14,550 nt of DNA from Escherichia coli (GTDB lineage: Bacteria > Pseudomonadota > Gammaproteobacteria > Enterobacterales > Enterobacteriaceae). Of this stretch, positions 2,648 through 3,116 are shown one piece after another (position 1 is the stretch's first letter; each line of letters opens with the position of its first letter). Where the stretch lies: assembly GCF_003334335.1 (NCBI RefSeq), contig NZ_QOWQ01000060.1. One strand, written 5' to 3'. The notes under the pieces are model-generated. The model worked only from the letters and a program-made list of their open reading frames with translations. It searched no databases and was not told the DNA's origin. A program made the translations under genes and the position numbers.

Positions 2648-2797
2648 TGCACGTGTCAGTATGATGAGCTGACCACACTCACGTGGGTGGACTGGTATAA
2701 CAATCGACGATTGCTGGAAAGGCAGGGCCATATTCCACCGGCAGAAGCAGAAAAAGCTTATTATGCTTCCATCGGAAACGATGATCTGGCAGCCTGA
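2648..2797 (+). pseudogene. IS3-family transposase (integrase core), C-terminal 49-codon remnant
   Basis: The frame translates to CTCQYDELTTLTWVDWYNNRRLLERQGHIPPAEAEKAYYASIGNDDLAA followed by a stop, which is the typical C-terminal tail of an IS3-family OrfB. An in-frame stop at 2645-2647 with no upstream homology shows the gene is truncated. Confidence 0.6.
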
Positions 2798-2799
2798 GT

Positions 2800-2839
2800 T
2801 CACAGATAAAACACTCTCCAGGAAACCCGGGGCGGTTCA
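2800..2839 (-). repeat. Terminal inverted repeat of the truncated IS3-family element (IS629-like end)
   Basis: The reverse complement reads TGAACCGCCCCGGGTTTCCTGGAGAGTG..., matching the remembered TGAACCGCCCCGGG start of IS629/IS1203-type ends. It lies just downstream of the transposase stop, as expected for an element end. Confidence 0.55.
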
Positions 2840-3116
2840 ATTGCTGGATAAGATCATAACGATACACCGGGTTAAACAGGTGGTCACTGCTTCACTGAAG
2901 CTGCGTGATTATGATGGTCAGGTAGCAGAAGCTATGCCCATGATACCAAAATGACGAAAGCCGAAATGTCTGAAAGCGTGTGTATTACCTGAAAATATGA
3001 CCGGCTCCGGGGTACGTAACCGATTCAACAAAGCCAATCGATATTACAAAACGAGAGGGACTATATATTTCGTTTTCAGATAAGACTCCTTGAGAGATTA
3101 TCTTTTATGTAAAATC

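Follow-up and report, generated by a model that had tools for sequence, protein, structure and literature searches.

Insertion sequences (IS) of the IS3 family encode orfA and orfB, from which a programmed -1 frameshift yields the OrfAB transposase with its DDE domain. They end in inverted repeats with 5'-TG...CA-3' tips and have a short (3-4 bp) target-site duplication, and one of their groups, IS629/IS1203/IS3411, is abundant in Escherichia coli O157, O26 and O111 and in Shigella. The IS903 group, which belongs to the IS5 family, has a single DDE transposase and a 9-bp target-site duplication. The names IS629, IS1203 and IS3411 denote isoforms of a single IS3-family element, which has orfA, orfB and terminal repeats, and truncated genomic copies of IS629 have previously been described in E. 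coli (PMC3271280; bioRxiv 10.1101/2023.06.07.543989). We analyzed a stretch of E. coli DNA of 14,550 nucleotides, referred to as the window, in which remnants of these groups lie side by side. We conclude with high confidence that the remnants are nested dead IS elements, an IS629-type element inside an IS3-like element that is itself inside an IS903-like element, which were later truncated by deletion and are left as debris beside the fec operon.

Element ends upstream of fec

Sequence searches revealed that window positions 2400-3100 are 100% identical to many complete E. coli chromosomes and that plasmids also carry the same segment. In the RefSeq annotation of strain WCHEC020031, IS66 (tnpABC) comes first in order and is followed by the phytase-like esterase gene, two transposase pseudogenes, the ariR/ymgB-like gene, more IS3 fragments and then IS1F, ykiE and fecIRAB. 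The annotation of a strain that is identical over 2400-3100 places nanC, nanM, a truncated nanS and fim genes further left of the IS66 side. The locus is the variable region between nanS and the chromosomal fec operon (ferric-citrate uptake) of E. coli. Its features, in window coordinates, are as follows.

1026-2384, minus strand: phytase-like esterase gene (RefSeq, WCHEC020031)
2590-2643, plus strand: 54-bp fragment of a non-coding plasmid repeat of ~200-240 bp, truncated on its inner side
2644-2665: 22 bp at the putative deletion junction that separate the plasmid-repeat fragment from the IS629 stub
2666-2839, plus strand: right-hand 174 bp of an IS629/IS1203-type IS3-family element, corresponding to positions 1136-1309 of a 1309-bp copy
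2666-2797, plus strand: last 43 codons and stop of orfB, with the same limits as a RefSeq 'IS3 family transposase' pseudogene that lacks its N-terminus (WCHEC020031)
2815-2839: 25-bp right inverted repeat in the non-coding end of the IS629 stub, as in IS629/IS1203 copies
2763-2954, plus strand: 63-codon open frame (from the list of open reading frames and translations) that runs across the IS629 end, the IS3-like stub and the IS903-like tail
2840-2856, minus strand: outer 17 bp of an IS3-like left inverted repeat, TGATCTTATCCAGCAAT, matched to the IS3 left repeat
2857-3035, plus strand: right end of an IS903-like (IS5-family) element, from alignment with IS903B, with the terminal repeat ending at 3035
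up to 2992: last ~45 transposase codons of the IS903-like element, with the tail codons (2948-2992) in the other frame
2862-2992: frameshifted 'IS5/IS1182 family transposase' pseudogene (RefSeq, WCHEC020031)
3117-3410, minus strand: ariR/ymgB-like gene, which follows the IS5/IS1182 pseudogene in the WCHEC020031 annotation

The initial annotation of this DNA described a severely truncated IS3-family element of which only the right end remains, and direct alignment bears this out. Specifically, 2666-2839 is 98.3%, 97.1% and 96.0% identical to three other IS629/IS1203 copies over all 174 bp, and the similarity to these copies vanishes entirely on either side, which leaves sharp boundaries. Note that the 1309-bp reference copy, 96% identical to the stub, is full-length and carries the RefSeq name 'IS3-like element IS1203 family'. 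A search with 2640-2839 matches thousands of IS3-family copies, and all matches outside the locus run from query base 27 or 30, equivalent to window 2666 or 2669, to 2839. The homology had been placed from 2648 onwards with 49 transposase codons; its actual start is 2666, and 43 codons and the stop survive. The homology had also been taken to break off at an in-frame stop. This stop (2645-2647) lies six codons upstream of the breakpoint, and the intervening CTCQYD codons are not IS-derived.

The claim of an intact-looking terminal repeat that ends at 2839 proved exactly right. The repeat matches the other copies at 25 of 25 bases and ends ...GGTTCA, and identity to the right ends of the three copies is complete from 2798 to 2839. 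Its minus-strand sequence at 2815-2839, TGAACCGCCCCGGGTTTCCTGGAGA, occurs once in the window versus 0 expected by chance. The left repeat of IS629 is absent from the window, so that only one of the two element ends exists, and there is no other IS629 piece anywhere in the window. The peptide encoded by the stub aligns to positions 344-369 of the 369 positions of the NCBIfam model transpos_IS3 with a score of 15 bits versus a cut-off of 160, and the conserved AMAES...K segment, which alignment places upstream in full copies, is missing from it. Also lacking from the stub are orfA, the -1 frameshift site, the DDE/catalytic region and the left repeat. Of the IS629/IS1203/IS3411 element, the stub keeps only 13%. 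This part, the last 174 bp, includes the end of orfB and the 25-bp right inverted repeat and is 96-98% identical to other copies, with two amino-acid changes relative to the nearest IS629/IS1203 copies. Its 96.0-98.3% identity lies above the isoform-level threshold of roughly 90-95% or more and, judged by its sequence, the stub is a relic of the IS629/IS1203 isoform group, a fragmentary and non-functional member.

The 17 bases that follow the stub separate the two RefSeq pseudogenes and are themselves unannotated; they form the tip of a third element. They match the genuine IS3 left repeat at window 4033-4049 at 16 of 17 positions, and relative to IS3, the type element of the IS3 family, only this repeat tip survives at 2840-2856. 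In two other alleles of the locus (L010 and L011) 35 bases, CTTAGCCGCGTGTCCATTATTGCTGGATAAGATCA, come directly after a perfect IS629 right repeat, and 33 of them match the IS3 left repeat; the inner 18 of these 35 IS3-like bases are deleted in the window allele. The two substitutions relative to IS3 indicate that the stub comes from a copy or isoform separate from the IS3 relic at 3714-4049. We read the IS629 right end (GGGGCGGTTCA) next to CTTAGCCGCGTGTCCATTATTGCTGGATAAGATCA as the junction of two elements and not as the end of one element. The other IS3-family relic, at window 3714-4049 on the minus strand, retains the tip of a genuine IS3 left repeat at 4049, together with a degraded orfA, in which AAG replaces the start codon, and a short piece of the transposase C-terminus; RefSeq gives it as three pseudogene pieces.

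To the right of the IS3-like tip, 2857-3035 aligns with the right end of IS903B. Positions 2860-2946 are the tail of a transposase gene, and a 10-bp deletion between 2946 and 2947 shifts its reading frame. Once the frame is corrected, a pairwise comparison gives 64% identity between the encoded peptide and the C-terminal 45 residues of the IS903B transposase (E=7e-15). The IS903-type terminal inverted repeat (GGCTTTGTTGAA...) is present at 3023-3035 on the minus strand as GGCTTTGTTGAAT, with 13/13 outer bases identical to IS903B and 0.01 occurrences expected by chance in the window. An independent mark of this end is provided by plasmid pB27_2, which diverges into IS1 one base past 3035. Although the terminal 13 bp are identical to those of IS903/IS903B and the transposase C-terminus shares the LRDYDGQVAEAM motif, the nucleotide identity to IS903B is only 74-77%, indicating that the fragment is from a distinct relative; other differences are the 10-bp frameshifting deletion and two more gaps in its non-coding end. 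Among plasmids, searches at the DNA and protein level gave no closer intact relative than IS903B, and no NCBIfam model matches the short frameshifted piece of ~45 residues. The right flank of the IS903-like end (3036-3044) reads AATCGATAT. These bases match 7/9 of the target duplication of an unrelated IS903B copy, CATCGAGAT (L007 1700-1708), a likeness that may reflect an IS903 target preference or chance.

The plasmid-type repeat and the left junction

The promoter region of the phytase-like gene had been named as the left neighbour of the IS629 stub. This stands only in part, as the DNA upstream of that gene is not plain promoter sequence and holds the 54-bp plasmid repeat fragment at 2590-2643. 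The fragment is 86-87% identical to plasmid copies, with the match starting at the same base in three unrelated contexts; the similarity may extend weakly to about 2652, and the 2590-2643 pattern is unique in the window. The repeat of ~200-240 bp from which it derives is found on 1,662 plasmid records across Enterobacteriaceae, including a 2.6-kb plasmid. The ends of this repeat resemble Tn3-family inverted repeats, and the 54-bp fragment may be the end of a Tn3-type miniature element, but many of the plasmid matches miss the first 40 bases. A small hairpin, GCGTTTAGGAAACGC, is located within 2590-2643. Two terminator-like hairpins were also noted, one inside the IS629 repeat and the other inside the plasmid-type repeat.

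The inner side of the plasmid-repeat fragment faces the IS629 stub with 22 bp in between. These 22 bp (2644-2665) are identical in all alleles examined and have no convincing match to either neighbour in alignments; they may be deletion filler or the remains of another element. The left junction thus joins the interiors of two elements, which indicates a deletion product, unlike what a simple insertion leaves. That a deletion removed most of the IS629 element, as the initial annotation held, is also the best reading because no other IS629 or IS903 fragment is present in the window, and a strain with 100% identity across 2400-3100 has no sequence of either element in its 40 kb to the left.

This left junction (plasmid repeat, 22 bp and IS629 stub) occurs in ~2,257 of 5,426 complete E. 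coli genomes and is 99-100% conserved. Both transposase fragments are also already RefSeq pseudogenes in thousands of genomes, and by these two observations the relics are already known and ordinary debris. What is new here is the IS3-like repeat stub, along with the order of nesting and the series of alleles; each is an ordinary feature of IS-rich island borders.

Alleles of the locus and a proposed order of events

Searches spanning the junctions recovered ~1,613 genomes with IS629/IS3-like/IS903-like junctions. The 35-bp allele is present in ~1,039 of them and the window-type (17-bp) allele in ~570, an approximate number obtained by subtracting one search count from another. Since the extra 18 bases match IS3, the 35-bp allele appears to be ancestral and the window allele to be the product of a secondary 18-bp deletion. 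There is no microhomology flanking the 18-bp difference. No pre-deletion allele with a longer IS629 was found at the locus, and a scan of species-representative genomes for the pre-deletion state in other species gave no match to the IS3-like/IS903-like junction.

Larger changes were observed in two strains, WEM25 and RIVM_C037884, which have kilobase-scale deletions with left breakpoints exactly at IS tips. In WEM25 (L011 2612-2660) the IS3-like tip is joined to window 4918, and in RIVM_C037884 (L004 4420-4435) the deletion runs from the IS3 tip at 4049 to about window 4881 and takes IS1F with it. Such tip-ended deletions would fit an end-directed, transposase-associated deletion as discussed for IS629 (bioRxiv 10.1101/2023.06.07.543989). 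Recombination between two IS3-type left repeats was considered as the origin of the WEM25 allele and rejected, as the right junction is at 4918 and not at the flank of the 4049 repeat. Strain RIVM_C037884 additionally has dense substitutions and indels in the last ~100 bp of the IS629 stub, including the inverted repeat (L004 3096-3216). The flanks of this form are identical to the window, and only two records reach 99% or more. The variant patch may stem from gene conversion by a diverged relative or from an error in the assembly. We rejected the possibility that it represents a natural hybrid IS end on two grounds: the common 35-bp allele has a perfect IS629 repeat abutting the IS3-like stub, and again only two records match at 99% or more.

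From these fragments we infer the mechanism, deletion included, and the following order of events. An IS903-like element would have inserted initially, with its right end at 3035. An IS3-like element would then have inserted into the IS903-like transposase gene, with its left tip at 2856, and an IS629/IS1203-type element would in turn have inserted ~35-38 nt inside the IS3-like left repeat, at a junction that is ambiguous by a shared TGA. One or a few deletions would subsequently have taken out IS629 positions 1-1135 along with the remainder of the IS3-like and IS903-like elements, so that IS629 nt 1136 became fused to the 22 bp and the truncated plasmid-type repeat upstream of the phytase-like esterase gene. 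Finally, a further 18-bp deletion would have removed the inner half of the IS3-like stub in the sublineage of the window.

Two other histories were weighed against this order. The initial annotation suggested that the IS3-family element had inserted directly into a host gene, with 2840-2954 as the 3' end of that gene. There is indeed an open frame that extends from the repeat to 2954, with the peptide that was quoted for it, and 2860-2946 truly is the tail of a gene. However, this gene is an IS903-like transposase gene and not a host gene, its true tail reads on in the other frame to 2992 after the 10-bp deletion, and 2840-2856 is the tip of an IS3-like repeat that is 35 bp long in other strains, which indicates that the IS629-type element did not enter the IS903-like gene directly. 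The 35-bp allele and the IS903-type terminal repeat at 3023-3035 refute a host-gene tail, and we consider this history very unlikely. The frame to 2954 is instead a chimera; a profile search found no meaningful protein family match for 2763-2954, RefSeq leaves it unannotated, and we judge it to be non-coding. For annotation purposes, what looks like a 63-codon frame should be corrected to a composite of three dead mobile elements. The other history dispenses with a deletion: a segment with IS66 and the phytase-like gene would have inserted into an intact IS629, the left part of which would survive further left. The left segment does have IS66 and also occurs on plasmids, indicating that it is mobile DNA, but the 40 kb to the left and the rest of the window are free of IS629 sequence, and the junction partner is the interior and not the terminus of a plasmid-type repeat. 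This makes insertion of such a segment extremely improbable, and nesting followed by deletion is the history that we retain. The resulting allele series (35-bp and 17-bp IS3-like stubs and IS-tip deletions) could provide a cheap marker for the descent of the fec island and for its horizontal spread among chromosomes and plasmids.

Probable inertness of the relics

With no orfA, frameshift site or catalytic region and only one end, the IS629 relic cannot transpose or be mobilised. We judge it to be inert; at most it probably provides live IS629 copies with 174 bp of homologous sequence. A search for RNA families gave no match in the region apart from one sub-threshold match outside of the relic. 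Promoter-like sites, which also lie outside of the relic, occur at chance level when compared with shuffled sequence; one of these precedes the esterase gene, at 2516-2487 on the minus strand.

We also asked whether the relic could have been co-opted as a regulatory or promoter element of the esterase gene, as a small RNA or as the 63-codon peptide, such that selection explains its presence in thousands of genomes. The 99-100% conservation of the left junction in ~2,250 genomes is congruent with this, as is the promoter-like site at 2516-2487. However, that site is outside of the relic and of a kind no commoner than in shuffled sequence, the region has no RNA family match, and the chimeric frame is without a protein family match. 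Furthermore, alleles that have lost 18 bp or kilobase-scale stretches of the right part are in wide circulation, and recent shared ancestry or horizontal spread of the island, plasmids included, accounts for the high identity. Co-option therefore has only the slightest probability, and inert debris remains our reading of the relic.

On a broader view, it is improbable that either the relic nest or the adjacent plasmid-type repeat fragment is other than inert, which could be the case in two ways. In one, the solo IS629 and IS3 ends would act as recurrent breakpoints or recombination substrates that drive allele diversity upstream of fec, a reading that the IS-tip deletions in WEM25 and RIVM_C037884 fit. 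In the other, the 54-bp fragment would be a functional (recombination or regulatory) site that affects the phytase-like esterase gene. The relic nest as such has little importance for biology. Among the IS relics upstream of fec there also lies a gene of the ariR/ymgB family of biofilm regulators, at 3117-3410 on the minus strand.
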